A program made the position numbers and the translations under genes. DNA of 46,523 nt from an uncultured Candidatus Saccharibacteria bacterium (GTDB taxonomy: Bacteria > Patescibacteriota > Minisyncoccia > Phycocordibacterales > Phycocordibacteraceae): assembly GCA_964618705.1 (NCBI GenBank), contig CAZUBJ010000002.1, forward strand, positions 1 through 46,523. Reading direction: 5' to 3'. The first letter of the stretch is position 1, and each line of letters opens with the position of its first letter. Under the pieces are notes generated by a model. That model did not search any database. It had not been told where the DNA came from and worked only from the letters and a program-made list of their open reading frames with translations. Below are positions 2,765 through 32,828 of this stretch, piece after piece.

Positions 2765-3400
2765 TTACGCGGCCTGCTCCTTCTTTGCGATCGTGCGGTA
2801 TGCGTGCATGAACGCCAACTGTGTGACCGGTACGGTCACAAACAGTCCTACAATAAGTGCGCAGAGACCAAGAATATTGAGTAGCAGTGTTGCGACCGCC
2901 AGCTTAAACAGCTCAAAGCGATGTCCACGAGTAAGACGAACACTTTCCTTAAGCGCTTCAACCGGACCAAGACCTTTCTCAATAACAAGTATGCCAGCAA
3001 ATGAGAATGCGAGCGCAATGATAACTCCCGGAACGATAAATAGAACCAACCCAAGAATTACTGGAATGCTCCCGAGGAAGCAGACTCCAAGGTAGCGCCA
3101 GAATGGCTTTGGATTCCATAGGTCGCGCAACTCTGCCTTGTTCACGTGGTCATGCGCCTTTAGATAGAGCGTGGTCACACCAATTCCCATAAGGAGTGTG
3201 GTAATGAATCCTTCCAAATCAATAAGGAGTTCCATCTTCTCCTTTCCGAATACAAATTCAAACAAGCCCTCTACAAGCCCAATACCGAGGCTGATAGCAA
3301 AGAGTAGTAGTGGCACTGCAACAAAGAGCCACGGACAGGCCTTGAATGTTTTCCACCCAAATGCCAAGTATTTTTTTGTGTGCGAGAGAAATTTTTTCAT
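2765..3400 (-). CDS. multi-pass integral membrane protein, function unknown
   Basis: 211-aa ORF with several hydrophobic helices ([68 protein letters not shown]). A terminator follows downstream. Confidence 0.6.
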
Positions 3401-3405
3401 GGTAC

Positions 3406-3756
3406 TTATGTTGCGTATTCAACGCGCGTTGCTGCGGCCGGGTTTGCTTCAAGTCGCGACTCCTCAATTGGTTCCCCACTAACGGTGCAAATGCCATAGG
3501 TGCCATTTTCGATGCGTGCAAGTGCTGCGAGCACTGCGCCGTAGCGAATCTCGAGGTCTTTTAATATTGCCGCGTTATCTTCATAACCTTCAATAAGGTC
3601 CGCAGCATCAACATGGTCTGCCTCTTGCCCCACCTCCTGCGGCACTGGCTCCCAGTCACCGGGGTTTGATGGATTAATACGACCGACAGTAGCCAGCGAA
3701 GCCTCAAGCTCTGCTTTCTCTGTCTCTAGACGGGTGCGGAAGTGTTCGGTGTTCAT
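3406..3756 (-). CDS. DksA/TraR-family-like protein lacking the 4-Cys zinc finger
   Basis: The ATG at 3756 lies just after the upstream gene's stop at 3788. Coiled-coil N-terminal part with an acidic tip (DHVDAADLIEGYEDNA). The C-terminal segment GTYGICTVSGEPIEESRLEANPAA sits where the CxxC..CxxC finger normally is, but only one Cys is present. Confidence 0.55.
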   Translation of the reverse strand: MNTEHFRTRLETEKAELEASLATVGRINPSNPGDWEPVPQEVGQEADHVDAADLIEGYEDNAAILKDLEIRYGAVLAALARIENGTYGICTVSGEPIEESRLEANPAAATRVEYAT

Positions 3757-3787
3757 CGAGGGTACTCTAGCACACTCCCGCGGGCTG

Positions 3788-5377
3788 CTATTTCGCTCCT
3801 GCGGACAAGCGAACCAAAAGTGCTGCAAATGCGGCTTCGTTTCGCGCAATAATAAGGGTTTCTCGGTCTGCGTAACCATACAGCATGATGGAACGACCAC
3901 GACTATCTCGCAGGATGCGCACATCTCTGTTGGCAACAACAGCATCAACAAACCGACCCGAGACTGTTACTGGCGGCGGCGTGCTTGGCATCACGGGAAC
4001 GGTAGAAGAAGCGGTAGCGAGAGTGGTGGTTGCGGTGCTGGTCGCCACAAGCGACAAATCTACAGAAGGCTCAGGCAAGTCGTCTGGGTACATTGGATAG
4101 AGCACGCCAATCTCTCGCACCATAAGCGGCTCCCAGGTGAGCATGGCTGCGAATGTGCGTTCATACGAAGAAACGCGCAGTATAAAGAAACTTCTGGTAT
4201 CACCACCCTCGTTAATGACACCGACCGTACTGCTCTCCTCGATGTTTCGCAAGAGTAAATCAGGTGCAGATAGCGATAGTGCTTTTATGAGAACGCCGCC
4301 CGGCGCAGGAGAGCCTGCCAGCGTACCAGTTTCTCCTGTTGCTGGTTGCCCGATGTAGGTCACTACTGCTGTGCCAGGAGCAAGTTGCTCACTTGCTACA
4401 GTAGCAAGTGCTTGTAGCAGTGCTCCGCCAGTACCTTCTACCTTTTTGTACTCGTCCGCAAAAATAAGTGATGGTACTGACAACGTAATGACCGGAACCT
4501 CGTGTCGCGCGCCAATGTACAAGTACGCTGCGTACGCTCCACCAAGACCAAACACAAGCAGCGCCACTCCTGCCACAAGTATGAGTATGGGCGGACGCTC
4601 ACCACGAGTAACTTCTGTGCGAGAAGCAACCGCCTGACCAGCATCAAGGCCGGCAGCAAGCACTGAAAAAGAGGACGACTTTGTTGCCTCAGTACGGTCC
4701 TTAAAGTCTGTTGAGAACGAATGAAACGGAGCTGCTGCTTGCGGCTTTGGTGTTGGCGGACGAGGCGCAATAGGTGTGGGAACAGGAGCTGGTGCGGGAA
4801 CTTCCTCAATTGGTTCACGATACAAGGGTGGCATCGCGTGCACAGGCTCGGGCTTCGGTTCTGCAAATTGCGGTACCGGCACAGGTTGCTCCGCTACTTG
4901 TATGGGTACTGGGGCCCGCGTAGGTGCTGTTTGCACAACATCTGGCACTGGCATTGCTGCTTTAGGTAGCGTCATTTTTGCACGAAGTCGCGCAAGGACT
5001 TCGTCCCGTTTCTCTTTCGCGTCATCCTTTGGAGCGGGCTGAGAGTCGCTCTCAACATACTGATCAAGCTCAGCGCTAGACTCAAGATCCACCACTTCTC
5101 TGTCTGGCCGCTCGGGTTTCTGCTGCGCCTCAAAGAATGGTTGCTCAGCTGCGTCAAACTCAACGCCGTCAGACACCTCGCCACGCTTCTTCTTTTCTGC
5201 TGCCACTACTTTTGGCACCGGCTCAGACTTTCTCTTTGGAAGCGCACCAACATTCCCCTTCCCACTCACTTGCGCCACGTCCTTTGCGTATGTGCGAATA
5301 TACTGCGACATGTCTTGCGCAGGTGCCGCATCTGTTAGATCAACAGGGGGTGGTACTGGTGAGGTGGTGTCCGACAT
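3788..5377 (-). CDS. proline-rich, single-pass membrane-anchored protein, function unknown
   Basis: 529-aa ORF. The N-terminal half is low-complexity and P/A/E/K-rich. One TM helix (PPILILVAGVALLVFGLGGAYAAYLYIG) is followed by a roughly 260-aa globular part. Overlapping ORFs on other frames are shadows. Confidence 0.6.
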   Translation of the reverse strand: MSDTTSPVPPPVDLTDAAPAQDMSQYIRTYAKDVAQVSGKGNVGALPKRKSEPVPKVVAAEKKKRGEVSDGVEFDAAEQPFFEAQQKPERPDREVVDLESSAELDQYVESDSQPAPKDDAKEKRDEVLARLRAKMTLPKAAMPVPDVVQTAPTRAPVPIQVAEQPVPVPQFAEPKPEPVHAMPPLYREPIEEVPAPAPVPTPIAPRPPTPKPQAAAPFHSFSTDFKDRTEATKSSSFSVLAAGLDAGQAVASRTEVTRGERPPILILVAGVALLVFGLGGAYAAYLYIGARHEVPVITLSVPSLIFADEYKKVEGTGGALLQALATVASEQLAPGTAVVTYIGQPATGETGTLAGSPAPGGVLIKALSLSAPDLLLRNIEESSTVGVINEGGDTRSFFILRVSSYERTFAAMLTWEPLMVREIGVLYPMYPDDLPEPSVDLSLVATSTATTTLATASSTVPVMPSTPPPVTVSGRFVDAVVANRDVRILRDSRGRSIMLYGYADRETLIIARNEAAFAALLVRLSAGAK

Positions 5378-5472: not shown

Positions 5473-5985
5473 TTATCCGCGGTGCCCTATGATGAACTTC
5501 TTTGGATCCTCACACATATCAGTGAATGCGTGCGCGGCCTCTTTCAGTTTCTGAGAAGATGATTTGCCGAAGGAGATAACCTCCACCTGACAGCCGTCAT
5601 TCTCAAGGTATTCAATGAGTGGGACAAAATCCCCATCACCGGTAGCAAGGATAACGGTATCCAGTTTCGGAGCGAGCTTTACCGCATCAATAGCGATACC
5701 CACATCCCAGTCGGCCTTCTTGGCGCCGTCAGAGAATATCTGGAGACCCTTTACCTTGGTCTCAATACCCATCTTGGTGAGTGCCTCAAAGAAATTCTTC
5801 TCGTCCCCACTTTCGGTGGAAATAACGTAGGCAATGGCGCGCACAAGTACGCGGTCCCCCACTGCTTCTTCCAAAACATTCTGGAAATTAACACGAGACT
5901 TATAAAGGTGTTTGGCACTGTGGTAGAGGTTCTGAGTATCAATGAATACCCCCACTCGCTGCGCCGGATGCTTGATTACAGGCAT
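5473..5985 (-). CDS. NYN/LabA-like (DUF88) putative RNase-fold protein
   Basis: VGVFIDTQNLYHSAK at the N-terminus and ILATGDGDFVPLIEYLENDGCQVEVISF, both typical LabA/NYN signatures. Confidence 0.75.
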   Translation of the reverse strand: MPVIKHPAQRVGVFIDTQNLYHSAKHLYKSRVNFQNVLEEAVGDRVLVRAIAYVISTESGDEKNFFEALTKMGIETKVKGLQIFSDGAKKADWDVGIAIDAVKLAPKLDTVILATGDGDFVPLIEYLENDGCQVEVISFGKSSSQKLKEAAHAFTDMCEDPKKFIIGHRG

Positions 5986-6912: not shown

Positions 6913-7830
6913 ATGGACGCAAGCCAAATGAAGCGGGAATTTCTCGAATATATTGAGATTGAGCGCGGTCGCGCGGTCAAAACGGTTGAAAACTACGACC
7001 ACTACCTCTCCCGCTACTTTGAGCAGATGAAAATAGTGAGTGTTTCCGACATTTCAGAGCAAAATATTCGTGAATTCAGGCTCTGGCTGAATCGCCAGCC
7101 GGGCACGGGGCGCGACTCTATGAAGCGCCGCACTCAGAATTACTACCTTATTGCGCTTCGCGCGTTCCTGAAGTTCCTGCGAAAGCGCGGCATTGAGAGT
7201 CTGTCCCCCGAGCGCATAGAGTTGGCAAAAGTCCCCGAGCGCCACTTGGACCTTATAAACGCTAGTGAATTGGCGCGTCTGATGAAGGCCCCAATGGATG
7301 CGTATGCTGCTGAAGAAGACGAGGGAAAGAAAGCAGCTTACTTGCGGGACTCTGCAATACTTGAGCTTCTCTTCTCGACGGGGCTTCGCGTATCCGAACT
7401 TTGTGCGCTTAATGTGGACATAGATCTCTCTCGTGACGAAGTGTCGGTGCGTGGAAAGGGCGACAAGGTGCGTGTGGTCTTTCTCTCAGACGCGAGCAAG
7501 GAAGCCATTCGTGCGTATCTAAAGGCCAGAAAAGATATGGAGGAGGCGTTATTTGTAGACGGCCGCCCCACTTCCCTTCATCGCATAACCCCACGCGACA
7601 TTCAGCGTCACTTAAAGAAGTACACCGCTCGCGCGGGTATCACCAGTAAAGTCTCTCCCCATACCCTACGCCACGTATTTGCTACTGATTTGCTCCAAAA
7701 CGGCGCAGATATTCGCTCGGTACAGGCGCTTTTGGGCCACGCCAGCATCAATACCACCCAGATTTACACGCACGTGACTGACGCGCATCTGCGCGAGGTC
7801 CACAAGAAGTTCCACTCCAAGAATCGCTGA
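6913..7830 (+). CDS. tyrosine site-specific recombinase, XerC/XerD family
   Basis: N-terminal SAM-like domain (FLEYIEIERGRAVKTVENYDHYL). Catalytic region GLRVSELCAL ... HTLRHVFATDLLQNGADIRSVQALLGHASINTTQIYTHV, containing the R..HxxR..Y signature. Confidence 0.85.
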   Translation: MDASQMKREFLEYIEIERGRAVKTVENYDHYLSRYFEQMKIVSVSDISEQNIREFRLWLNRQPGTGRDSMKRRTQNYYLIALRAFLKFLRKRGIESLSPERIELAKVPERHLDLINASELARLMKAPMDAYAAEEDEGKKAAYLRDSAILELLFSTGLRVSELCALNVDIDLSRDEVSVRGKGDKVRVVFLSDASKEAIRAYLKARKDMEEALFVDGRPTSLHRITPRDIQRHLKKYTARAGITSKVSPHTLRHVFATDLLQNGADIRSVQALLGHASINTTQIYTHVTDAHLREVHKKFHSKNR

Positions 7831-12336: not shown

Positions 12337-12411
12337 GCGCCCGTAGCTCAATGGATCGAGCACTTGTCTTCGGAACAAGGGATGGGGGTTCGATTCCCTC
12401 CGGGCGCACCA
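12337..12411 (+). tRNA. tRNA-Arg (anticodon TCG), CCA encoded
   Basis: Hand fold: acceptor GCGCCCG/CGGGCGC, D stem GCTC/GAGC, anticodon stem CTTGT/ACAAG with loop CTTCGGA, T arm GGGGG-TTCGATT-CCCTC, then ACCA. Confidence 0.9.
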
Positions 12412-13680: not shown

Positions 13681-13751
13681 GCGGATATGGTTTAGTGGTA
13701 AAACGAGTCCTTGCCAAGGATTAGTCGGGAGTTCGATTCTCCCTATCCGCA
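13681..13751 (+). tRNA. tRNA-Gly (anticodon GCC), no encoded CCA
   Basis: Acceptor GCGGATA/TATCCGC, D stem GTTT/AAAC, anticodon stem AGTCC/GGATT with loop TTGCCAA, T arm GGGAG-TTCGATT-CTCCC, discriminator A. Confidence 0.9.
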
Positions 13752-14020
13752 CCCGAGCAGCAAAAGAACGCCAAAGGGCGTTCTTTTGCATTTATGCTCG
13801 GGTGCGGATAGAGCACGGTGTGGGATACCGTGCGTGGAGAATCGAAAGCCGGAAGCGCGACGGCGCCGAGGCGGGGTCGCGCAAAATCCCAGCAGGGATT
13901 TATGTGTGACCGATGCGTGACAGCGACTCTTCGAGCGAAGCGAGTTAGAGAAGCGGAACTTCTCCCTATCTCCGAACCAGGGGGACGAAAGTGGTAATCG
14001 CCGGTTCTCCCTCAAATCCT
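13752..14020 (+). repeat. tRNA-3'-end-linked element, copy behind tRNA-Gly(GCC); two tandem modules
   Basis: 16-bp perfect inverted repeat at 13744-13759 / 13795-13810. Inverted T-arm copy GGAGAATCGAA at 13836-13846. 31-nt and 44-nt blocks are shared with the 16261-16500 copy. A decayed direct copy of the tRNA 3' end lies at 13960-13977. A tail AAAGTGGTAATC..TTCTCC is shared with the tRNA-Pro copy. Confidence 0.7.
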
Positions 14021-14624: not shown

Positions 14625-14699
14625 TGCACCGACGCACCCCGTTCGCTCGGCGAAACACCAAATATACGCTCCGCGTGCATTTGGTGTTTGCCTCACTCA
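14625..14699. repeat. CT-rich REP-like intergenic repeat, copy 3
   Basis: cgttcgctcggcg-AAACACCAAAT…ATTTGGTGTTT-gcctcactcac, with the same flank words as the other copies. Confidence 0.45.
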
Positions 14700-14770
14700 C
14701 GGGGTGTCGTATACCGGTAGTACGCTACTTTTGGGAAGTAGATGACGGAGTTCAATTCTCCGCACCCCGA
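14700..14770 (+). tRNA. tRNA-Pro (anticodon TGG), no encoded CCA
   Basis: Acceptor CGGGGTG/CACCCCG, D stem GTAT/GTAC, anticodon stem CTACT/AGTAG with loop TTTGGGA (G37), T arm CGGAG-TTCAATT-CTCCG, discriminator A. Confidence 0.85.
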
Positions 14771-14961
14771 CTACTTTTGAACGCAGTGAAAAATAGACGG
14801 GTGCAGCACTGTGTCTGCACACAGTGCGTGGAGAATTGAATGGCGGAACCTTATTTCAGTCAGCAGACTGAAATGGTGAGCCGGGCTCGCGAGCATTGTG
14901 AGTGACGACGAACAATGACTTGTGAGCAAAAGTGGTAATCCACGTTTCTCCGCACCCCGAC
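14771..14961 (+). repeat. tRNA-3'-end-linked element, copy behind tRNA-Pro
   Basis: Inverted acceptor copy at 14794-14804. Inverted T-arm copy GGAGAATTGAA at 14830-14840. Perfect 16-nt direct repeat TTCTCCGCACCCCGAC at 14756-14771 and 14946-14961. Confidence 0.7.
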
Positions 14962-16186: not shown

Positions 16187-16260
16187 GCGGGATTAGTTTA
16201 ATGGTAGAACTACAGTTTTCCAAACTGTTAGCAGGAGTTCGATTCTCCTATCCCGCACCA
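16187..16260 (+). tRNA. tRNA-Gly (anticodon TCC), CCA encoded
   Basis: Acceptor GCGGGAT/ATCCCGC, D stem GTTT/GAAC, anticodon stem ACAGT/ACTGT with loop TTTCCAA, T arm AGGAG-TTCGATT-CTCCT, then ACCA. Confidence 0.85.
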
Positions 16261-16500
16261 AAATCACGACGAGGACGCGGAGCGTGCGAGGACTATATTT
16301 TGGGCTGGGATAGGAGAATCGAAAGCCGGAAGCGCGACGGCGCTGAGCGGGCGTAGATTTCGTTGCGAGCCTGCGAGCTAGGAAATCAAGTGCAGAGCTT
16401 CGCGCAAAATCCCAGCAGGGATTTATGTGCGACCGATGCGTGACCAAATATTCTTATGAGCGCAGCGAATTAGAATATGGGAACTTCTCCTATCCCGCAC
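16261..16500 (+). repeat. tRNA-3'-end-linked element, copy behind tRNA-Gly(UCC)
   Basis: Perfect 17-nt inverted copy of the tRNA T-loop-to-acceptor segment (GGGATAGGAGAATCGAA, 16307-16323). Perfect 16-nt direct repeat TTCTCCTATCCCGCAC at 16243-16258 and 16485-16500. Blocks 16313-16343 and 16401-16444 are near-identical to 13836-13866 and 13878-13921. Confidence 0.75.
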
Positions 16501-16602
16501 ACAGTGAACAAATTGTACGAAATGCAGAAATTGGCGCATGGGTAGCCGATTACAGCCGGTTATGACTATAATTGCAGTGAGCAGTAAAGCTATACTTATC
16601 CA

Positions 16603-17619
16603 ATGAGTGAAAGCCTCCCTAATTCTTCCTCAGAAATCGAACAGGAGGCGCCAAACGAAACGCACGAAGAAAACGATCACTCTCCTGAGAGTGATCTGAC
16701 AACGCAGGATGCTGAAGTTGTAATAAAATACCAAGAAGGCCGAGAAACAGCTCAGACAGCCTTTGACAATGCGATTAGAGAAAGAAACTCTAATGAAAAC
16801 CTTTCGCGTGTTCGAGAGTCACTAGGACTAGCCACAAGTCAGCAACATAATTCTTTTGCATTAGACGATATAGAGGCGCTAGAAGCGGAACTGATACGTG
16901 CTGAAGCCAATTATCCAGGGCACTGGACGTTATTATTGGCTGATCGTCTACGCGATCCTGAGACCAAGAAAAAATTTCTGGAGACAAGAACTGAGGCTCT
17001 CCCTTCATTACAAGAAGGAAACCCGGGACCATTTGATAGGGAAAAACGATTTCGGGCTCATTATGAAGAGCAGATGGCAAATTATGAGGAGAATATTGAA
17101 TCTGTATTTAATCAAACTGTAGTCGGCAATGCCGCTGAATTTGGGAAGAAACCTGTTCATGCAGGTTCAGGGAACATAGGAGAGCCTGGAACCGTTTTTC
17201 TAGATTCGGAAACAAAGGAGGGCTTACCCCTGACTCCTCGGCAGAAGATGATAATCGAAGCTCATGAAAAAGGGCATGGTATGCGGGATTTTCAAGGATC
17301 AGATGCCATAGAAATTCGGTCGGTACTAGATTTCAGTGTTTTAAAGGAGCGTGAGGAGATTGCTACTGCACAGAATCCACAAGATAGATTCGCTAATTAT
17401 CTAAATAAACCCGAAGAAATCATTGAACGCATGGCCCAGCTCAAGAATTATTTCGGATTTAAGGGAAATGAGGTTTTTACAAAGAAGCATTTGGACTACG
17501 CACGAGAGCATTACATTCAAGACACAGGTTTAGATAACACAATGAGTCACTTCTTTGCTGCTGTAACTCCAGAGACGGAGGATCACTTCATTGAGGTAAT
17601 GAATAAATATCCGATATAA
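16603..17619 (+). CDS. hypothetical protein with an HEXXH motif (possible zinc metallopeptidase), low-GC gene
   Basis: 338-aa ORF with an acidic N-terminus and IIEAHEKGHGMRDF (HEKGH). Hand counts give 38-47% GC in sampled 60-nt lines. No signal peptide is seen. Confidence 0.5.
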   Translation: MSESLPNSSSEIEQEAPNETHEENDHSPESDLTTQDAEVVIKYQEGRETAQTAFDNAIRERNSNENLSRVRESLGLATSQQHNSFALDDIEALEAELIRAEANYPGHWTLLLADRLRDPETKKKFLETRTEALPSLQEGNPGPFDREKRFRAHYEEQMANYEENIESVFNQTVVGNAAEFGKKPVHAGSGNIGEPGTVFLDSETKEGLPLTPRQKMIIEAHEKGHGMRDFQGSDAIEIRSVLDFSVLKEREEIATAQNPQDRFANYLNKPEEIIERMAQLKNYFGFKGNEVFTKKHLDYAREHYIQDTGLDNTMSHFFAAVTPETEDHFIEVMNKYPI

Positions 17620-17729
17620 GATCGCTTCTAGGCTTGTTTACTAATCTGCACAAAGGGAAAAGTCCTTCGGGCTTTTTCCATTTGTGCGGGATAAGTCAGG
17701 TGTGGGGAGTCTGACAAGCTTGACGGTAT

Positions 17730-17754
17730 ACATACATTATGTGATAATGTATGT
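17730..17754. promoter_or_regulatory. operator-like perfect palindrome
   Basis: ACATACATTAT-gtg-ATAATGTATGT, located 36 nt upstream of the GTG at 17790. Confidence 0.4.
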
Positions 17755-17789
17755 GGGTACTATTGCCCCTTATAGAAGGAGGTTCTCCA

Positions 17790-18215
17790 GTGGAGACCAC
17801 GTCGCAAAGAAATGAAATGAGGTTTGATGCCTCTGCCGACCTTTATATCCGTGTTGAGTCGGGTATGCGCTACACACACGAAGAGATCAAGGGCTTCGTT
17901 GAAAGAGCGGCATCAAGTGTGGAGCCGTGGCGCAATACGCGCGGACAACCCTTCGAAAACTATCTCAGGCCGAACTACGAAACGGGTAGGGCTGTGCAGG
18001 GGCAGCTCGACACGCTCTACCTGATAACGATTACTCAGCTCGGTCGTGTTTCTCGTGCGACTCTGGGAGCACAACAACTGTTTGCGTACCGCGCCTTCGT
18101 GGAATCAGTGGTGCATGCGGTTGCGGAACTCGGAGTGCCAGGACTGCATTCGGTAGACGGAGTTGTTAACTATTCGCTGCCGCTTGCCAGGCACACAGCA
18201 CCACTCTCAACCTAG
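17790..18215 (+). CDS. hypothetical protein
   Basis: AAGGAGG at 17776-17782 lies 7 nt before the GTG at 17790. 141 aa; I recognise no motif. Confidence 0.5.
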   Translation: METTSQRNEMRFDASADLYIRVESGMRYTHEEIKGFVERAASSVEPWRNTRGQPFENYLRPNYETGRAVQGQLDTLYLITITQLGRVSRATLGAQQLFAYRAFVESVVHAVAELGVPGLHSVDGVVNYSLPLARHTAPLST

Positions 18216-18349
18216 CCGCCCATTCGGCGAAACGAAAGCAACCCCTTCGTTTCGACGGAGGGGCGGTTTTCTTTTTCATCAACATCACAAACTCTCGCCC
18301 GCATCGTATACTGTATCCATACTTTGATCACTAGACCTGTACTTTCTGT

Positions 18350-19255
18350 ATGACTATCACACAAACCTGGCGCACAAGCGCACTCATTGCTCTAGCCGTA
18401 GTGACCACCATGGTCGCAGCGCCCGCTGAAGCATTTGCCGCAGAGAAATGCGCATTCACGAAAGATTTGACCATTGGTCACGAAGGCGAAGAGGTGCGCT
18501 GTTTGCAGAAGTATCTAAACGCAAACGGCTACATCGTGGCCGCAACAGGTGTGGGCTCTACAGGAAAGGAGACAAGCCAGTACAAAGCACTTACGCAGGC
18601 CGCGGTGAAGCAGTGGCAGCTTGCAAACGGCATCATCCCGTCTACGGGCACTTTTGGTGCAAAGTCACGCGCGATGTACGCTACCCTTACTTCAGTAAGC
18701 ACTCCAACGGTACCAGTCGTAGTGCCAACCACTCCAACAGTGCCAAGCACCAGTTCGGTAGAGTCTGACACCAGAGAATCGCTCCTTAAGGCAAAGGACA
18801 GTCTAAACGAAATCAAGGACGATATTGACGAGGCAGAAGATGACGACAACGATATTGGAAATGCAAAAGAGTACTACGAAGAAGCACAAGAAGAGCTCTT
18901 TGATGCCTTCTATTACTTCTTGAAGCGTGAGTACGCAAACGCACTTGATAGCTCACTCACCCTTGCAAAGAAGATTCGTGACGCGCGCAACGAAATCCGC
19001 GAGAATATAGATGAGGAAGACAAGGCACGAGAAGCAATCGCAGACGCCGAGAACGCCATTGAAGACGCGCAGGATGCAATTGATGAGGCGGACGACCGCG
19101 GTAAGAACGTAAACGATGCAGAGGACTTGCTAGACGAAGCAAAGGACGCGCTTGAAGAAGCCGAGGACCTGCTTCGCGACGATGAGCTAGAGGACGCATA
19201 CGACCGCGCCAAGGAGGCTGAGCAGCTTGCCGAGGACGCAGAGGACGAGGTGTAG
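18350..19255 (+). CDS. secreted protein with a peptidoglycan-binding (PG_binding_1-like) domain and a long acidic helical tail
   Basis: Signal-like N-terminus (ALIALAVVTTMVAAPAEAFA). GHEGEEVRCLQKYLNANGY…AVKQWQLANGI. P/T linker. C-terminal ~170 aa extremely D/E-rich. Confidence 0.7.
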   Translation: MTITQTWRTSALIALAVVTTMVAAPAEAFAAEKCAFTKDLTIGHEGEEVRCLQKYLNANGYIVAATGVGSTGKETSQYKALTQAAVKQWQLANGIIPSTGTFGAKSRAMYATLTSVSTPTVPVVVPTTPTVPSTSSVESDTRESLLKAKDSLNEIKDDIDEAEDDDNDIGNAKEYYEEAQEELFDAFYYFLKREYANALDSSLTLAKKIRDARNEIRENIDEEDKAREAIADAENAIEDAQDAIDEADDRGKNVNDAEDLLDEAKDALEEAEDLLRDDELEDAYDRAKEAEQLAEDAEDEV

Positions 19256-19294
19256 CTCTCTGCACTCTAAATGACAGTGCTATGCTAGCAGCAT

Positions 19295-20050
19295 ATGATG
19301 AAGGAACTAGAGGATCTTGGGCTCTCTGAAAAGGAGGCACGCGTATACCTGGCATCTCTTGAAATTGGACGTGCAACGGCAGATCAGCTTGCTAAGCACG
19401 CAAATATTGTGCGGCCAACAACCTACGTGCAAATTAAAGCCCTCATGGAAATGGGGCTAATGAGTACGTACGAAGAAGGGAAAAAGACGTACTTTGCGCC
19501 AGAATCTCCGTCAGCGCTCAAGCGCCTGCTTGAAAAGAAGAAAGAAGCTCTGCGAACGAGTGAGTCGCTACTGTCCAGCATGCTCCCTGACCTCACTCGT
19601 CAGTTTGAGGGAGCGGGTGAGCGTCCGGTGGTTAGGTTTTTCCCCGGGAAGGAGGGTCTTGCTTCTGCGAGAGAAGAAATACTAACAACAAGGGAGAAAA
19701 AAGTTTATGCAGTATTTTCTCCGGAGCACATGTCAAGGATTTTTTCTTCGGAGTATTTGGACGACTACTCGGACAGAAGAAGGGCACTGGGGATTCATTC
19801 TGTTGGAATTTATAACCAAAAAGAAATGTTTGACAGAGCTGGGCTGGATCAGCTTACGGAACGAAGGCAGCTTCCCCCAGAGCTGGAATCGCTATCTGTA
19901 GACATATATATAACAGATAACAAAGTCACCATTCTTTCGCTAGAGGGAAGTTTATTTGGTTTCGTAATGGAGAGCGACCAGCTCGCCTCTAGCATGAAGG
20001 CAATATTTAGTTTTCTCTGGACATCATCATCTGGTCCAGATAGTAAATAA
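19295..20050 (+). CDS. TrmB-family transcriptional regulator
   Basis: LGLSEKEARVYLASLEIGRATADQLAKHANIVRPTTYVQIKALMEMGL, a winged-HTH N-terminal domain typical of TrmB. Confidence 0.75.
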   Translation: MMKELEDLGLSEKEARVYLASLEIGRATADQLAKHANIVRPTTYVQIKALMEMGLMSTYEEGKKTYFAPESPSALKRLLEKKKEALRTSESLLSSMLPDLTRQFEGAGERPVVRFFPGKEGLASAREEILTTREKKVYAVFSPEHMSRIFSSEYLDDYSDRRRALGIHSVGIYNQKEMFDRAGLDQLTERRQLPPELESLSVDIYITDNKVTILSLEGSLFGFVMESDQLASSMKAIFSFLWTSSSGPDSK

Positions 20051-20051
20051 A

Positions 20052-20277
20052 AATGGGGTCGGGAGTAAACTCCCGACCCCGAGCGGCTGAAAGCCGCTAC
20101 CACTTGACCGGTGACGGGTCTAGTTGCCGTCCCCGCCTCTGTTGAGATAGGTCAAGACCTACTCCTTCTCTCACGTTTGCCCAGTATTACCTGGGCGGTC
20201 ATCTGGCTACACGCTCCAGAGAACGAACATCTCACTTCCTTTCGGCTGGGCTGAAAACACTCCAAAACTGCCAGACC
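20052..20277 (-). ncRNA. candidate orphan small RNA (about 225 nt) defined by a promoter and an intrinsic terminator
   Basis: Minus-strand TTGACA-N17-TAGATT (plus coordinates 20311-20283). Minus-strand terminator GGGGTCGGGAG-ttta-CTCCCGACCC followed by ATTTTTATTT (20080-20045). The interior has at least five helices and no ORF. Confidence 0.4.
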
Positions 20278-20425
20278 ACACTAATCTAGCAGTGGCAACA
20301 CTTTTTGTCAAGATACTTAGTTAGAAAAGCACTTTTAATATAAATTGCACTGACGAATGTTTTGCGCGAAGTGCCTTATACCCACTGCATTTTCAGTAGG
20401 AAATATATCGTCATGTCAAAACATA

Positions 20426-20454
20426 TTGACAAAAAAAGTGCAAGGGTATATAAG
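20426..20454 (+). promoter_or_regulatory. sigma70-type promoter of the small-ORF cassette
   Basis: TTGACA-N17-TATAAG (also TATATA two nt upstream), set in an AT-rich divergent control region. Confidence 0.6.
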
Positions 20455-20661
20455 AGCTAAGTCAGCGCTGGCTGACAAGAGCTTTGACGTTTAAATACAA
20501 GTATTCGTTATTCCTATCCGGACAGATAGGCAAGTGTCAGGAACTCTCCGGCCCATTAAATGCCGGGCCTACTCACTATTCTGTCTGGTATAGGGATTGC
20601 GAAAGCAATTCCTGGGAATTTCCCATAAAGGGAAGACTGGCGCCCGGGGAGGGGCATAACT

Positions 20662-20856
20662 ATGAACATTGAAGAAGACTATGGCTTGAAGGAGCGCCGC
20701 CTTCGCGATCTCGAAAGGGAGGCGGACGAGCTCCTGCGCCAGGCTGGCTGCAACTTTGCTGGTGTTAACCGGCGGGATGTGGTCGCGAGCCAACAGGCTT
20801 TTGAACGCCTGGCGATTCGCACCCCGACGGGGGGAAAGTCCTGTCGGAGGCACTAG
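20662..20856 (+). CDS. small hypothetical protein (64 aa), cassette ORF 1
   Basis: GGGGAGGGG lies 7-8 nt before the ATG. The N-terminal half is charged and helical. Confidence 0.4.
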   Translation: MNIEEDYGLKERRLRDLEREADELLRQAGCNFAGVNRRDVVASQQAFERLAIRTPTGGKSCRRH

Positions 20857-20966
20857 CCGGTGCCACCTTGCCCTGCAGCGGGGTCACACTGCAGGTTGCT
20901 GGGTAGTCCACCAGCGTAAATGCATGGGCAAGATGCGCGGACATCTATAAAAGCCGCAAAAAGTAC

Positions 20967-20997
20967 GGGCAGACAAGAATGTGTCTGCCCCTTTATT
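20967..20997 (+). terminator. terminator/attenuator-like hairpin between cassette ORF 1 and ORF 2
   Basis: GGGCAGACA-agaatg-TGTCTGCCC followed by CTTTATT. Confidence 0.5.
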
Positions 20998-21032
20998 CAG
21001 CCTGCGAAATGGTTCGTGGGTTGATAGAGATA
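20994..21032 (+). repeat. 39-nt hairpin motif, copy 1 (12 nt upstream of the ORF 2 ATG)
   Basis: tattCAGCCtGCGAAatggTTCGTgGGTTGatagagata; 34/39 identical to copy 2. Confidence 0.6.
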
Positions 21033-21043
21033 CGGGGCTGTTG

Positions 21044-21412
21044 ATGAAAATTTTGAACCTTACGCAGCACGACGCCACGGCTGATCAGATCGCCGCCGGC
21101 GTGCTACCCGCAGGCTGTGAAAAAGAAGAGGTGCGCGAGCTCCTCACTTTTGACAGCCTGCCGAGCAGGGAGTGGATTGAGGCGAAGGCGCAAGCCCTCG
21201 CCGACGTCGCTCGTGCTCACGGGCCGCTCATCGACGCCGTCATGATCGGCGGCGCGCCCTATCTTATGGGGCCGCTCGAGCGCGCGTTGAAGGCGCAGAG
21301 TATCAAAGCCCTGTACGCCTTCTCGCTTCGTGAGAGCGGCGAGACGCCAGACGGAGAAGGTGGTGTGCGAAAGACGATGGTCTTTAAGCATGCCGGCTTT
21401 ATCGAGGCGTAG
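21044..21412 (+). CDS. hypothetical protein (122 aa), cassette ORF 2
   Basis: MKILNLTQHDATADQIAAGV… …VMIGGAPYLMGPLERAL…YAFSLRES…FKHAGF. It looks like a conserved small alpha/beta protein, but I cannot name the family. Confidence 0.55.
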   Translation: MKILNLTQHDATADQIAAGVLPAGCEKEEVRELLTFDSLPSREWIEAKAQALADVARAHGPLIDAVMIGGAPYLMGPLERALKAQSIKALYAFSLRESGETPDGEGGVRKTMVFKHAGFIEA

Positions 21413-21480
21413 CTGCCAGTGGGGAGTGGTGATCCTGACAACAGAATTCACCAAGGAGGACATTGCTACGTCCTCCTCCA

Positions 21481-21519
21481 TATTCAGCCCGCGAAACGGT
21501 TCGTTGGCTGATAGGGATA
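21481..21519 (+). repeat. 39-nt hairpin motif, copy 2 (5 nt upstream of the ORF 3 ATG)
   Basis: tattCAGCCcGCGAAacggTTCGTtGGCTGatagggata. Confidence 0.6.
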
Positions 21520-21524
21520 AAGCG

Positions 21525-21785
21525 ATGACCGATAAGAATGAAGAAGTTTTCTTTCAGGACTGGAAGCCAGGAAAGGGCCACCAGGAAATCTGCGTCTGGG
21601 TGAACAAGGACCCGGATGGGAACTTCTGGATCGCCATCGTCACCCGGGACGGCCGCTATCCGCGGTGGGAGACTAGTCGTGGCGCGATTGTCCGAACTCT
21701 TTCCGAAGCATTCGCCACTCTCAATGTGTGGCTCGGAGAACGCGATTGCGGGTGGAATATCGAAACAGAGGAGGAGGTGGAATGA
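21525..21785 (+). CDS. hypothetical protein (86 aa), cassette ORF 3
   Basis: The ATG at 21525 follows motif copy 2. The stop overlaps the next start (ATGA at 21782-21785). Confidence 0.5.
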   Translation: MTDKNEEVFFQDWKPGKGHQEICVWVNKDPDGNFWIAIVTRDGRYPRWETSRGAIVRTLSEAFATLNVWLGERDCGWNIETEEEVE

Positions 21786-22036
21786 AAAACCGGAATCCAA
21801 TCGCCAAGGCACTTCGGAGCCCAGCGCTCCGACAGCGCGTCGTGTCCGACAAGAAGAAGTGGTCAGACCGAAAAAAGGTGCGAAATTCGCTCAAATTGGG
21901 CAAGTACGATCGTGACCGATACGATTTGCCCCTCTTATTGAGACCGATGACATTCCGTCGTCGGCTCATCAGAGGCTTGATCTTTCATGCGCAATTCCGC
22001 CACCGTTCTCGTGCCCGTCGTCATGGGCATCGCTGA
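21782..22036 (+). CDS. ArfA-like (alternative ribosome-rescue factor A-like) small basic protein, cassette ORF 4
   Basis: NPIAKALRSPALRQRVVSDKKKWSDRKK compared with E. coli ArfA [29 protein letters not shown] (pattern N-x-I-x3-L-x2-P-x-[LF]-RQRV-x3-KK). Translationally coupled to ORF 3. Confidence 0.45.
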   Translation: MKNRNPIAKALRSPALRQRVVSDKKKWSDRKKVRNSLKLGKYDRDRYDLPLLLRPMTFRRRLIRGLIFHAQFRHRSRARRHGHR

Positions 22037-22163
22037 CAGCTTCGTCGGGCTCTTCGGCCTCATGCTGAATCCCTACGGACTCCTCGGCATCGGTTTGTCG
22101 CTCTTCTTTCTGCTGGGAGGCATCTGGCTCATCCAGATCGGCTTTCAGCAGTCGAAGACGTAG
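21987..22163 (+). CDS. possible 58-aa two-helix membrane peptide, cassette ORF 5 (below the ORF-track size cut-off)
   Basis: Hand translation: MRNSATVLVPVVMGIADSFVGLFGLMLNPYGLLGIGLSLFFLLGGIWLIQIGFQQSKT*. It overlaps the 3' tail of the ArfA-like ORF in another frame. Confidence 0.35.
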   Translation: MRNSATVLVPVVMGIADSFVGLFGLMLNPYGLLGIGLSLFFLLGGIWLIQIGFQQSKT

Positions 22164-22195
22164 ACAAGGCAGCAGAAGGAACTGCAAAAATCCTC

Positions 22196-22227
22196 CAAGG
22201 CGCGGCTATAAGTCGCGCCTTTTTGTT
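22196..22227 (+). terminator. intrinsic terminator closing the cassette
   Basis: AAGGCGCG-gctataagt-CGCGCCTT followed by TTTGTTT. Confidence 0.75.
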
Positions 22228-22248
22228 TACCAACGTATACTCCATCTC

Positions 22249-28891: not shown

Positions 28892-28918
28892 ACGTGCGAA
28901 CGCGATGCGTTCGCACGT
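28892..28918. promoter_or_regulatory. perfect 12-bp-arm palindrome abutting the pilB -10 box
   Basis: ACGTGCGAACGC-gat-GCGTTCGCACGT, immediately followed by TATACT (28919-28924), 20 nt before the pilB ATG. Confidence 0.5.
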
Positions 28919-28943
28919 TATACTTTCAATACGAACTTTTTAC

Positions 28944-30695
28944 ATGCAAGTATCTGAAAGCGAACTAAAAGAATTCATTCTTGATTCGGGACTCGTCTCC
29001 CGGAAGGAAGTTGAAGCTGCTGCAGAGGAAGGGAAGCAGCGTAAGCAATCAGTAGGAGACATCCTTGTTTCAAACGGACAACTTTCACAGGATGCGCTTC
29101 GTCGCATTAAGGCGTACGTGCTTGGTATTCCTTTTGTAAACTTGAAGGACCGAAAGATTCCACTTGAAGTGCTGTCACTCATTCCAGAACCAATTGCGCG
29201 CACGCACAGCATTGTTGCCTTTCGTAAGGGTGACAAGGAGCTTGAAGTGGCGATGCTTGATACTGAGGACCTTCCCGCTATTGATTCGGTGCGAAAGACC
29301 ACCGGTCTCACCATTCTGCCGCGCCTGACTGACGATGACTCGCTCAAACACACACTGTTGCAGTATCAAAAGTCGCTCAAGGAAGAATTCGGAGATTTGA
29401 TTGCTACCGAGTCTGGCCGCATCAACCTTATTAAGGATTCAGATGGAAAGGAGGTGACTGGAGAGGACCTCAAGAAAATGGCAGAAGATCTGCCGATTGT
29501 GCGCATCGTGGACACGCTCCTTCGCCATGCAATTATCCAGAGCGCATCCGATATTCATATTGAGCAGCTCGAGGACCAGGTGCTTGTACGCTATCGCATC
29601 GATGGCATTTTGCATGATGCAATGACACTGCCCAAGGATGCGGGGCCAGGCATTATTGCGCGCATCAAGGTGCTGTCATCTCTAAAGCTCGACGAGAAGC
29701 GTCTACCACAGGACGGCCGATTCAAAATGGAATCTGATGGCGACAAGGTGTCGTTCCGTGTCTCCATGCTCCCAACCTACTACGGGGAAAAGATTGTTAT
29801 GCGCTTGCTGCGCGAGACGGGTGAGGGCTTCTCACTGGAGACGCTTGGCTTCCACGGAGAGACCATGGAGCGCATTCATAAAGCGATGAAGCAAACAACG
29901 GGAATCATTCTCGTCTCTGGTCCTACCGGTTCTGGAAAAACCACCACGCTCTATACCATACTCGATATTTTGAACACGCCGGACGTAAACATCTCGACCG
30001 TAGAGGACCCGATTGAGTATCAGATGAAGCGCGTGAACCAAACACAAGTAAATCCAGCCATTGGGTTTACCTTTGCCCAAGGGTTGCGCTCGCTGCTTCG
30101 TCAGGATCCAAACATTATTATGGTGGGAGAGATTCGTGATAGTGAGACTGCGTCCCTTGCCATTAATGCGGCCCTCACCGGACACGTCGTACTCTCCACC
30201 ATTCACACCAACTCAGCCGCCGGCGCCATTCCGCGTCTCATTGATATGGGAGTGGAGCCGTTCCTGCTCGTATCAACACTTCGTCTCATTGTTGGACAGC
30301 GTTTGGTGCGCAGACTCTGCGATGGCAAGGAAGAGTACATTCCAGATAAGGTGGAGCGAGAGAAAGTGGCGAGCGAGGATCACTTTACTGCGGCGCTCGG
30401 CTCCCTTACAGAAGAAAAATTGATAAAGGCCGGTACTAAACTTGCCGACTTGCCGTTCTACCATCCAAAACCCTCAGCCGAGTGCGAAGAAGGGTACAAG
30501 AGTCGTATTGGTATCCATGAGATTCTCACCGTGTCGCCAACCATTCGTGATTTGATACTCCACAACGCATCTCCTGATGCTATCGAGGCGCAGGCTCGTA
30601 AGGAAGGTATGCTCACCATGCTCGACGACGGTATTTACAAAGCGGCGCGCGGCATCACCAGTCTTGAGGAGGTGCTCCGCGCAGTGACTGAGTAG
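28944..30695 (+). CDS. pilB: type IV pilus assembly ATPase (PilB/GspE family)
   Basis: N-terminal GSPII-type domain, Walker A GPTGSGKTTT, Asp box, Walker B IIMVGEIRD, His box STIHTN. ATG at 28944. Confidence 0.9.
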   Translation: MQVSESELKEFILDSGLVSRKEVEAAAEEGKQRKQSVGDILVSNGQLSQDALRRIKAYVLGIPFVNLKDRKIPLEVLSLIPEPIARTHSIVAFRKGDKELEVAMLDTEDLPAIDSVRKTTGLTILPRLTDDDSLKHTLLQYQKSLKEEFGDLIATESGRINLIKDSDGKEVTGEDLKKMAEDLPIVRIVDTLLRHAIIQSASDIHIEQLEDQVLVRYRIDGILHDAMTLPKDAGPGIIARIKVLSSLKLDEKRLPQDGRFKMESDGDKVSFRVSMLPTYYGEKIVMRLLRETGEGFSLETLGFHGETMERIHKAMKQTTGIILVSGPTGSGKTTTLYTILDILNTPDVNISTVEDPIEYQMKRVNQTQVNPAIGFTFAQGLRSLLRQDPNIIMVGEIRDSETASLAINAALTGHVVLSTIHTNSAAGAIPRLIDMGVEPFLLVSTLRLIVGQRLVRRLCDGKEEYIPDKVEREKVASEDHFTAALGSLTEEKLIKAGTKLADLPFYHPKPSAECEEGYKSRIGIHEILTVSPTIRDLILHNASPDAIEAQARKEGMLTMLDDGIYKAARGITSLEEVLRAVTE

Positions 30696-31622: not shown

Positions 31623-32828
31623 ATGAAATTTCGTGTATCAGTACAAACGAAAGATGGTGCAAAAGAGAAGCGAATCATAGATGCCGAGAATCGCTTTTCG
31701 GTATATTCGCAACTGGAGGCTGAAGGAGTGACAGTACTTGAAGTTGTGGAAGCAAAGGACCCGAAGAAAGCTGGAGGTATTACATTTGGAACAGGCATCA
31801 AGACCGAGGAGAAGATTACGTTCACCAAGAATCTCTCCGCTATGCTCTCGGCGGGCCTTACACTGTCCCGCGCGCTTTCCGTTATTGAGCGACAGTCAAA
31901 GAACAAGTATCTAAAGGCGGTGGTAGCAAGCATCGAAGAGAAAATTAAAACAGGTGGCTCGTTCCACGAGGCGCTCATGATGCATCAGAAGGTGTTCCCA
32001 GAGCTCTTTATTGCGATGGCGAAGGCGGGAGAAGAATCAGGAACCCTTGCAGAATCACTTAAGTCTATCGCTAAGCAGATGGACCGATCGTTCACGCTCC
32101 AGAAGAAAGTGAAAGGAGCGATGATCTACCCAAGCATCATTCTCTCGGCGATTGTTGTGATTGGTGTGCTCATGCTTATGTTCGTGGTGCCAACACTGTC
32201 TGCCACGTTTGAATCCTTGGGTGTCGAGCTACCAATGGCCACCAAGGTCATCATTGGCATTTCAAACTTCCTCGCTGAAAACGTCATTATTTCCTTGCTG
32301 CTCCTTGCTGGTTTCTTTGCAGGAATCTATGCGTTCACGCATTCCCGATTCGGTGCTGCGCTTATTCTCCAGATAGCACTTCGTATTCCGGTGATTGGGG
32401 ATTTGGTACGAGAGACGATGGGTGCTCGCGCAGCACGCGCGCTTTCTTCACTTCTTTCCTCGGGCGTGGAAATGCTCACTGCTATAAAAATTGCAGGGGA
32501 AGTAGTAGGAAAGAATGTATTTGGAGTAGTGCTCACCGAGGCAGAAGAGCGTGTGCGTAAAGGAGAAGCGCTCTCAGCAACCTTTAACAAGTATCCCGAT
32601 TTGTTTCCGGCGTTTTTCACGGACATGATTTTAGTAGGTGAGGAAACAGGAAAGGTGTCCGACATGTTGGGACAGGTTGCTGAATACTATGAAACCGATG
32701 TTGAAGATAGAACCAAAGATCTCTCAACTATTATTGAGCCACTTTTGATGCTTTTCATTGGAGTCTTTGTGGGAGTGTTTGCGATTTCGATGATTACACC
32801 AATCTACTCGCTTTCTTCAAAAATATAG
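31623..32828 (+). CDS. pilC: type IV pilus platform protein (PilC/GspF family)
   Basis: Two T2SSF repeats (LSAMLSAGLTLSRALSVI…; LSSLLSSGVEMLTAIKIAG…) and three TM segments. Confidence 0.9.
   Translation: MKFRVSVQTKDGAKEKRIIDAENRFSVYSQLEAEGVTVLEVVEAKDPKKAGGITFGTGIKTEEKITFTKNLSAMLSAGLTLSRALSVIERQSKNKYLKAVVASIEEKIKTGGSFHEALMMHQKVFPELFIAMAKAGEESGTLAESLKSIAKQMDRSFTLQKKVKGAMIYPSIILSAIVVIGVLMLMFVVPTLSATFESLGVELPMATKVIIGISNFLAENVIISLLLLAGFFAGIYAFTHSRFGAALILQIALRIPVIGDLVRETMGARAARALSSLLSSGVEMLTAIKIAGEVVGKNVFGVVLTEAEERVRKGEALSATFNKYPDLFPAFFTDMILVGEETGKVSDMLGQVAEYYETDVEDRTKDLSTIIEPLLMLFIGVFVGVFAISMITPIYSLSSKI

Follow-up and report, generated by a model that had tools for sequence, protein, structure and literature searches.

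The attachment (att) sites that tyrosine-integrase islands and prophages use within tRNA and transfer-messenger RNA (tmRNA) genes were reportedly sorted by Williams in 2002 into sublocation classes, one of which lies in the T loop. Cis-mobilizable elements (CIMEs), described for integrative and conjugative elements (ICEs) of the ICESt1 type, are att-flanked remnants without recombination genes, and folded single strands act as recombination sites in integron attC and in the CTX-phage attP used by XerCD. Here we analyse the stretch that follows the tRNA-Gly(UCC) gene in 46,523 nucleotides of DNA (the window) from an uncultured Candidatus Saccharibacteria bacterium, a member of the candidate phyla radiation (CPR), whose bacteria have tiny genomes and single-copy tRNA genes. 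The stretch holds a direct and an inverted copy of the 3′ end of the tRNA gene, arranged around a structured core. It belongs to a well-defined, abundant and clade-specific family of units that is missing from Rfam and apparently undescribed in the literature. As the best fit, held with moderate confidence, we propose that the units are miniature, non-autonomous elements that target tRNA and tmRNA genes and carry a structured module acting as RNA or single-stranded DNA (ssDNA). We prefer this reading because of the distribution of the units, their polymorphism, arrays and decay, one cargo-bearing case and one record of cross-integration.

Copies of a tRNA 3′ end around a decayed core

The 16-mer TTCTCCTATCCCGCAC, which starts at T-loop position 59 of tRNA-Gly(UCC), occurs exactly at both 16243–16258 and 16485–16500; by our own estimate, about 2e-5 second exact 16-mers would be expected in 46.5 kb. 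Between the two copies, GGGATAGGAGAATCGAA (16307–16323) is the exact reverse complement of 16238–16254. Both repeats had been pointed out in an earlier note, made from the letters of this DNA, and the inverted one proves to be longer than was described there, spanning 27 nt at 89% (16238–16264 against 16297–16323) and reaching into the 3′ trailer of the tRNA. The distal direct copy is split, with CGA (positions 56–58) standing apart from TTCTCC... (position 59 onward). The unit holds no credible open reading frame (ORF), as the same note had stated, the only frames listed being those that overlap the tRNA.

The window has four tRNA genes according to ARAGORN and Rfam, and the same layout follows three of them, tRNA-Gly(GCC), tRNA-Pro and tRNA-Gly(UCC), but not tRNA-Arg; its recurrence at two further tRNAs had been noticed before. 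The three stretches have in common the 19-mer GGAGAATYGAAWGSCGGAA (3 matches compared with 0.06 expected) and a hairpin with an AGCA loop, the stem sequence of which differs from copy to copy. The Gly(UCC) unit is a decayed member of the family: the covariance model described below gives it 18.4 bits, compared with 79.7 for the Gly(GCC) unit and 77.9 for the Pro unit. Relative to an intact unit, it has lost a G of helix P2, contains an insertion of about 46 nt and an extra segment of 48 nt, and has no branch hairpin. Its spacer is without a terminator hairpin, in contrast to many family members.

Distribution of the family

A scan for the 19-mer across 185,579 species genomes returned 101 loci, of which about 30 have the full architecture; the others were dismissed as family members, being chance matches in coding DNA. 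All of the full-architecture genomes are CPR, namely Yonath-, Kaiser- and Vogelbacteria, Paceibacterota, Saccharibacteria and Minisyncoccia. In metagenomes, a pattern that excludes the tRNA-derived part (AAAGSCGGAR...GAGSCGGGGTCG) matched at least 120 contigs. The further copies on which the earlier note had made its reading depend are many, in Patescibacteria genomes and metagenome contigs alike. A unit lies 4–57 nt downstream, on the same strand, of 35 of the 60 tRNAs in the 31 sources that were searched first; across the family, units lie 4–90 nt downstream of an RNA gene and always on its strand.

The host tRNAs are those for Gly, Ser, Leu, Met, Arg, Ala, Pro, Glu, Val, Cys, Thr, Lys, Asp, Trp, Asn and Tyr. 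Units also directly follow the tmRNA genes of L155, L160, L176 and L189 (L numbers label the genome and metagenome loci compared with the window), with three in tandem in L176; ARAGORN finds no tmRNA gene in the window itself. The family thus uses essentially all tRNA isotypes as well as tmRNA, which goes beyond what the window alone had suggested. At L147, L150 and L203, where the repeats end in ...CCTGTAGGGTCAC, neither ARAGORN nor Rfam detects an RNA gene ahead of the unit.

In Rfam 15, only tRNAs reach the gathering score, and nothing credible covers the three window units even at E values up to 10. Two patterns were run against viral contigs; one gave a single chance match in coding DNA and the other, independent of the tRNA, gave none. 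The literature searches that completed returned no description of such an element, TIGR-Tas and a meeting report being only tangential. That the repeats arise by chance or are assembly artefacts, the latter a doubt raised in the earlier note, is favoured by their short length only. This explanation is refuted because many projects have yielded the same architecture, in well over 100 independent assemblies, with repeats far above chance, and we give it practically no credence.

The inverted copy as a strand of a covarying fold

A unit reads, in order, the tRNA to positions 56–73, a spacer that often holds a terminator hairpin, the 5′ strand of helix P1, AAA, P2, GG, P3 and the gene copy. The P1 5′ strand is the complement of the T stem and T loop, from position 65 to 56. 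P2 consists of GSC, a GGAR/YGA internal loop and a variable tip, and P3 of GGUCGCG...YGUGACC, again with a variable tip. The core ends in GUGAC, which is followed by the local gene copy from C56 to N73 and a variable length of trailer, such that the repeat has a fixed start at C56, a variable end and a length of 16 to more than 34 nt. The GUGACC at this junction is 91–98% conserved, although it lies outside the search pattern. In about a quarter of units, a complement of the acceptor 3′ strand and a branch hairpin of 25–26 nt precede the P1 strand. An acceptor complement with at most one mismatch is present in 27 of 108 units, and the branch hairpin then sits exactly at the acceptor/T-stem boundary, measuring 25–26 nt in 19 of the 27.

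The P1 5′ strand tracks the neighbouring T arm, reading GUGGGACUCG beside a tRNA-Leu with CGAGUCCCAC and GCAGGAUUCG beside tRNA-Asn. In a MAFFT alignment of 23 units, 81.6% of the cells are paired, compared with 69.9% in shuffles and 34–41% in slid controls, and the covariation score is 0.343 compared with 0.149. A covariance-model alignment of 124 units, which is fitted to the model itself, gives 89.7% paired compared with 68.4% in shuffles and a covariation of 0.46 compared with 0.148; both sides change in 26 of 29 pairs, and four helices covary. The covariation of P1 is partly inherited from the diversity of the tRNAs, and that of the branch hairpin, P2 and P3 is independent of them. One P3 pair is kept as G.U by 112 of 116 units; a second pair occurs as G-C in 54 units and as G.U in 43. 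The fold lies on the tRNA strand because the G.U pairs that are kept would be C.A mismatches on the other strand; such G.U (or G.T) pairs fix the strand only, and the fold could form in either RNA or DNA. The inverted copy is thus one strand of a conserved, covarying three-way-junction fold, a feature that the single window had not revealed.

Of the two interior hairpins proposed in the earlier note, AAATCCC-agca-GGGATTT survives as a family helix, the tip of P3. The other, GCCG...CGGC, gives way to different pairs, as covariation supports GCC/GGC (P2) and GCGC-GACG-GCGC (the P2 tip) in its place. Known motifs with which the fold was compared by inspection, the group I intron, the hammerhead and the kink-turn, were set aside, since the junction strands (AAA, GG and none) and the GGAR/YGA loop do not match these motifs.

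Turnover between close relatives

Relatives of the window were found by way of the neighbouring protease gene and from the earlier scans. The tRNA-Pro site is filled in the window, L223 (95% DNA identity) and L039, and empty in L224 (81%) and L225 (76%), in which the tRNA and its trailer lead directly to the terminator. Empty and filled sites, by which the earlier note had proposed to judge mobility, thus coexist at one gene. The tRNA-Pro unit of L009 has an 85-nt internal deletion in its core, and that of L223 is accompanied by a further 115-nt insert (3078–3193) that has a copy of the tRNA 3′ part at each of its ends.

At tRNA-Gly(UCC), L224 has an intact type B unit only, L009 has type A and then B, and in the window type A stands alone, its core being of another type; homology between the window and L009 at this gene stops exactly after GGAGAAUCGAAAG. 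In L009, an ORF of 483 amino acids (1.5 kb, 2858–4310, minus strand) lies within the core of unit B, between its left and right halves, which shows that units can carry or receive cargo. No Pfam domain was found in this ORF, and the spacing of its AHG...DSC motifs looks like that of a caspase or CHAT-type protease. Units in tandem and remnants of right ends occur commonly across loci, and cores are more alike within a contig (identity 0.80) than between contigs (0.63).

Short inserts without a core, bounded by copies of the tRNA-Pro 3′ part, were also observed: the one in L223 given above and others in L004 (about 3976–4060) and L100 (about 5668–5730), with L004 and L100 carrying a second T arm and acceptor 3′ strand after the gene. 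The tRNA 3′ ends of these genomes therefore gather several kinds of small insert.

These comparisons bear on whether a unit could instead be a cis-regulatory RNA switch of the host. Here, the inverted copy would pair either with the tRNA 3′ half, unfolding the tRNA, or with the distal copy, closing P1, and binding of a ligand or protein by the core would set whether read-through transcripts give usable tRNA. The three-part layout (X, X′, X) resembles an attenuator, the conserved three-way junction is closed by P1 and covaries, and the pairing often reaches into the trailer, which might act as a toehold. The minimum-energy structures predicted for a tRNA with its unit (z-scores of −6.8 and −8.5) have the inverted copy base-paired to the proximal 3′ half and the distal copy closing the cloverleaf, giving a tRNA in which a structured insert separates positions 55 and 56. 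The same folds are in line with the second suggestion of the earlier note, a 3′ trailer that competes with tRNA folding, which tandem, decayed and cargo-bearing copies fit poorly. Tandem arrays, right-end remnants, internal deletions and the cargo ORF are equally awkward for a switch, as are the presence and absence of units at the same tRNA among close relatives, the frequent decay of the distal copy in otherwise intact units and the lack of any riboswitch match in Rfam. Many units, moreover, lie behind an intrinsic terminator, so most tRNA transcripts may end before the inverted copy is made. On balance, we consider a switch unlikely.

Origin of the two 3′-end copies

The mobile-element reading raises the matter of which 3′-end copy the element brings. 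In L210, a partial tRNA-Pro (positions 43–64) is fused to a Gly(UCC)-type 3′ end (CCCGAGTTCGA joined to TTCTCCCATCCCGCAC), and downstream follow a Gly-type spacer, a Gly-type inverted copy, the core and a Pro-type 3′ part. This core is 91% identical to that of the tRNA-Gly(UCC) unit on the same contig, and just upstream stands an intact tRNA-Pro, restored by another insert. The order of these parts reads as the record of an element that carried its own 3′-end copy and recombined in the 13-nt identity of two T arms. Of 55 cases across the family in which proximal and distal copies disagree, 48 show pairing of the internal strand with the proximal copy and 14 with the distal one, and the inverted repeat extends into the proximal trailer only. 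The proximal copy would accordingly be the element-borne one, and we interpret 16485–16500 in the window as the displaced original 3′ end of the tRNA gene.

Distal and proximal copies are 0.87 identical over positions 56–65 and 0.86 over positions 66–73, compared with 0.67 for the trailers, and within the distal copy the paired part is no better preserved than the unpaired part. The distal copy thus decays roughly neutrally, near the expectation for a pair of copies of which only one is free to change. As a test of an origin from the tRNA 5′ strand, the inverted copy was read against tRNA G.U pairs; its base there is A (9 cases), G (6) or a different one (6), a split that favours neither side. 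CCA follows the distal copy in 23 of 79 cases and the gene copy in 15 of 79 (discordant, 11 compared with 3), a weak trend. Retro-copying of a CCA-tailed RNA was rejected on this count, CCA after the distal copy being only slightly the commoner.

The same data speak to a small tRNA-like RNA gene, another way to account for the units. The inverted and distal copies would form a mimic of the acceptor/T-stem minihelix, with the branch hairpin and core in place of the T loop, and RNase P and RNase Z would release it to act as a decoy or adaptor. Folded singly, units do form an acceptor-like stem, together with a hairpin and a T stem that holds a large insert, and both the placement and size of the branch hairpin and the slight CCA excess would suit such a product. 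Yet the acceptor complement is confined to the 27 of 108 units mentioned above, the near-neutral decay of the distal copy spares its paired part no more than the rest, and the inverted copy is a closer match to the proximal copy with its trailer than to the distal copy. The core of the Gly(UCC) unit is, in addition, damaged. We regard a tRNA-like RNA as improbable.

A model for the element and the search for an enzyme

We propose that a protein-less element of about 130–250 nt would take up the T loop and 3′ end in genes for tRNA and tmRNA. Its opening segment would be an element-borne version of the gene's 3′ part, beginning at C56 and reaching the 3′ end, such that the gene stays intact, and a spacer would follow in which an intrinsic terminator would often let the tRNA transcript end normally. 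The internal inverted copy would then pair with that 3′ part, and the conserved three-way-junction core, with GUGAC as its last bases, would close the element. The gene's original 3′ part, now displaced, would make up the direct repeat and be left to decay. Gain, loss, tandem duplication and shuffling would proceed through recombination in the short identity of T arms and 3′ ends, and entry into a different tRNA would produce a chimeric gene in need of rescue or correction. The enzyme would act in trans, a Xer-type recombinase of the host and homologous recombination after DNA uptake being no more than candidates, and the fold would serve the element itself, as RNA or as folded ssDNA that presents a target-mimicking duplex. 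The miniature, non-autonomous element that the earlier note had suggested finds support in the many copies, their polymorphism and their lack of genes; no autonomous relative was found. An integrase is absent, as that note had remarked: the unit has no gene, and no gene recurs beside the units at the 140 loci compared.

Several observations weigh against this model. Searches found no recombinase, autonomous relative or excised form. Clustering of the ORFs around units at the 140 loci yielded no integrase, transposase, reverse transcriptase or HUH protein and no recurrent TnpA or TnpB, and the commonest gene family near units reaches at most 11 of the 140 loci, all such families being housekeeping. 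The only recombinase in the window, a housekeeping-type tyrosine recombinase of the Xer type (6913–7830, plus strand, about 9 kb from the unit), passes the cut-off of the archaeal XerA model and falls far below those of integron integrases (128 compared with 265 bits and 76 compared with 435 bits); it is a candidate for the trans-acting enzyme, and nothing links it to the units. The empty tRNA-Pro sites may be secondary deletions between the repeats and not ancestral, and L210 is a single case on one metagenome contig. The interiors of L068 and L100 are nearly identical, yet the units follow different Gly tRNAs and both flanking copies are local in each; to explain this, the distal copy would have to have served later for correction, or the mechanism would have to duplicate its target. 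The fixed start at C56 with a variable end also fits staggered cutting of the target. A pure target-site duplication with an element-borne guide may also apply and would account for L068, L100 and the variable end; the foreign 3′-end copy of L210 contradicts it. Finally, the compensatory changes and the conserved G.U pair would be superfluous for a plain double-stranded att site and point to a function as RNA or single strand.

Such a function is at the centre of a further alternative, a mobile element acting at the RNA level, whether as an intron-like ribozyme or as a guide RNA, that would insert into or excise from the T loop at C56. The GUGAC end, lying beside C56 of the guide-paired copy, would cleave, ligate or direct a host enzyme. 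In the predicted fold, the two ends of the element meet at the three-way junction and the whole resembles a pre-tRNA with an insert in its T loop; the repeat junction is always C56, next to the conserved GUGAC(C); the guide strand covaries with its target across isotypes; and in L210 the guide kept the donor sequence after the move to tRNA-Pro. Against this stand the lack of similarity to known ribozymes or introns, the absence of a linked reverse transcriptase and the proximal copy, which already completes the gene and makes splicing superfluous. A true T-loop intron was discarded outright, as decay of the distal copy is frequent and the gene ahead of the unit is complete in every case. Although we judge an RNA-level element unlikely too, its consequence deserves mention: the three-way junction would be a new functional RNA, programmable through its guide strand and acting at the U55–C56 phosphate of any tRNA, a prospect that we hold equally doubtful. 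It might provide a programmable RNA for T-loop insertion, excision or cleavage, with possible use as a donor of spare tRNA 3′ fragments.

The window also encodes ComEC (41122–42600), a type IV pilus ATPase (28905–30695), a platform protein (31623–32828) and RecJ (38954–40678). This kit for DNA uptake and recombination could move units between strains by homologous exchange at tRNA genes.

Surroundings of the units in the window

The genes around the units are housekeeping genes with a G+C content of about 52%, encoding the CCA-adding enzyme, LysA, YraN/UPF0102, a trypsin-like protease, RNase Y, NusA, ClpP, type IV pilus proteins and ComEC. Directly 3′ of the Gly(UCC) unit lies a variable island (16501–22248; G+C 0.457 at 16–18 kb) with a 338-residue HExxH-motif protein, a peptidoglycan-binding-domain protein, a TrmB-like regulator and small membrane ORFs; a Pfam search of the island genes of the window gave no informative matches. 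L009 and L224 have other genes between tRNA-Gly(UCC) and pheA. The G+C-rich hairpin motif ACGCGGAGCGTGCG occurs in the Gly(UCC) spacer (16276–16289) and, inverted, upstream of tRNA-Pro (14666–14689), as well as upstream of units without an adjacent tRNA in the metagenome contigs L115, L137 and L158, and may be a separate short repeat family. Right-end remnants like the one that follows the Gly(GCC) unit (Table 1) are also found in L040 and L083; a possible further remnant at 21911 of the window was unconvincing.

Table 1 Coordinates of the tRNA genes, units and unit parts in the window
Feature	Position	Strand	Basis or remark
tRNA-Arg(UCG)	12337–12411		ARAGORN, Rfam
tRNA-Gly(GCC)	13681–13753		ARAGORN, Rfam
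Terminator-like hairpin ahead of Gly(GCC) unit	13760–13789		
Sister unit after tRNA-Gly(GCC)	13795–13979	+	Repeats; 79.7 bits
Gly(GCC) unit, inverted copy	13795–13811		
Gly(GCC) unit, branch hairpin	13812–13834		
Gly(GCC) unit, P1 5′ strand	13836–13844		
Gly(GCC) unit, core	13845–13910		
Gly(GCC) unit, decayed distal copy	13960–13979		
Decayed right-end fragment of an older unit, AAAGTGGTAATCGCCGG and TTCTCCCTC...	13988–14019	+	Direct repeat
tRNA-Pro(UGG)	14700–14771		ARAGORN, Rfam
Sister unit after tRNA-Pro	14797–14961	+	Repeats; 77.9 bits
Pro unit, acceptor complement	14797–14804		
Pro unit, branch hairpin	14805–14828		
Pro unit, P1 5′ strand	14830–14838		
Pro unit, core			
Pro unit, extra hairpin	14929–14945		
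Pro unit, distal copy	14946–14961		
tRNA-Gly(UCC), CCA encoded	16187–16260	+	ARAGORN; Rfam tRNA, 71.2 bits
Proximal copy, tRNA 3′ part from C56 to C74	16240–16258	+	Direct repeat; double role as gene 3′ end and element left end
Spacer, tRNA to inverted copy	16259–16296	+	Sequence; small hairpin motif ACGCGGAGCGTGCG
Inverted copy	16297–16321	+	Inverted repeats; strand covaries family-wide with the neighbouring tRNA T arm
Inverted copy, trailer complement	16297–16303	+	
Inverted copy, acceptor 3′-strand complement	16307–16312	+	
Inverted copy, T stem and T loop complement GGAGAAUCG	16313–16321	+	P1 5′ strand
Three-way-junction core, damaged	16322–16436	+	Alignment with the Gly(GCC) unit; low covariance-model score
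Core, J1/2 AAA	16322–16324	+	
Core, P2 5′ strand GCC	16325–16327	+	
Core, GGAA and tip hairpin GCGCGACGGCGC	16328–16343	+	
Core, P2 3′ strand	about 16347–16349	+	One G lost
Copy-specific insertion between P2 and P3	about 16354–16399	+	About 46 nt
Core, P3, tip AAAAUCCC-AGCA-GGGAUUU	16400–16433	+	End GUGCGAC
CGA, copy of positions 56–58	16434–16436	+	
Extra 48-nt 3′ segment between CGA and distal repeat	16437–16484	+	82% identity in the Gly(GCC) unit
Distal direct copy, tRNA positions 59–74	16485–16500	+	Exact direct repeat

Significance and relation to known systems

If the units are mobile elements, CPR bacteria carry an abundant, gene-less parasite or passenger of their tRNA and tmRNA genes, marked by a well-defined structured motif that Rfam lacks. 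The new covariance model would serve the annotation of CPR genomes, in which such stretches are at present unannotated and can confuse the calling of tRNA 3′ ends and islands, and the units offer a natural marker of recombination and strain turnover. They also pose a tractable question, that of what recognizes the universal T loop and why the element must fold. Should the fold guide or catalyse the reaction, the units would represent a new class of RNA-directed DNA or RNA rearrangement.

With integrative elements of the T-loop class, the units share a direct repeat from the T loop to the gene end, a gene kept intact by an element-borne copy, the use of tmRNA, tandem pile-up at one gene and the presence of empty and filled sites in relatives. 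They differ in measuring only 130–250 nt, in having no integrase or other gene, in using nearly every isotype and not one attB, and in possessing, inside the unit, an inverted copy of the target together with a single-strand fold that is conserved and covaries. CIMEs likewise have att-like flanking repeats, no recombination genes and an enzyme presumed to act in trans; the units are instead a sequence and structure family of their own and not random deletion remnants, and neither the viral-contig scans nor the 140 loci yielded a parent ICE or prophage with the same ends.

Miniature inverted-repeat transposable elements (MITEs) are similarly small, non-coding, multi-copy, polymorphic between relatives and stably folded into hairpin-like structures. 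The units, by contrast, have no terminal inverted repeats, as the partner of the left end in their inverted repeat lies inside the unit and their right end is the P3 helix ending in GUGAC. Their flanking repeat of 16 to more than 34 nt, with one variable end, is no target duplication of fixed length, and their targeting is strictly to tRNA and tmRNA 3′ ends. Non-autonomous elements of the IS200/IS605 type differ in that units insert with a long target repeat and that TnpA and TnpB are not recurrent beside them.

The putative likeness to integron attC and CTX-phage attP sites, which assumes an ssDNA substrate for the units, would lie in the conservation of structure rather than of duplex sequence, in a folded stem that would recreate a target-like duplex, and in arrays, occasional cargo and a host with a Xer-type recombinase. 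In the units, however, the core sequence itself is highly conserved, most copies are without cargo, and no integron integrase or attI lies near the 140 loci. In Archaea, mobile tRNA introns and split-tRNA leaders are short non-coding inserts that have spread among tRNA genes (Fujishima et al. 2010 in PMC10714607). These inserts resemble the units in their spread among tRNA genes, in their occasional T-loop position and in their tRNA-complementary sequences. The units differ from these inserts in being bacterial, in having neither a bulge-helix-bulge motif nor a splicing endonuclease, and in following a gene that is already complete and whose 3′ part is duplicated.

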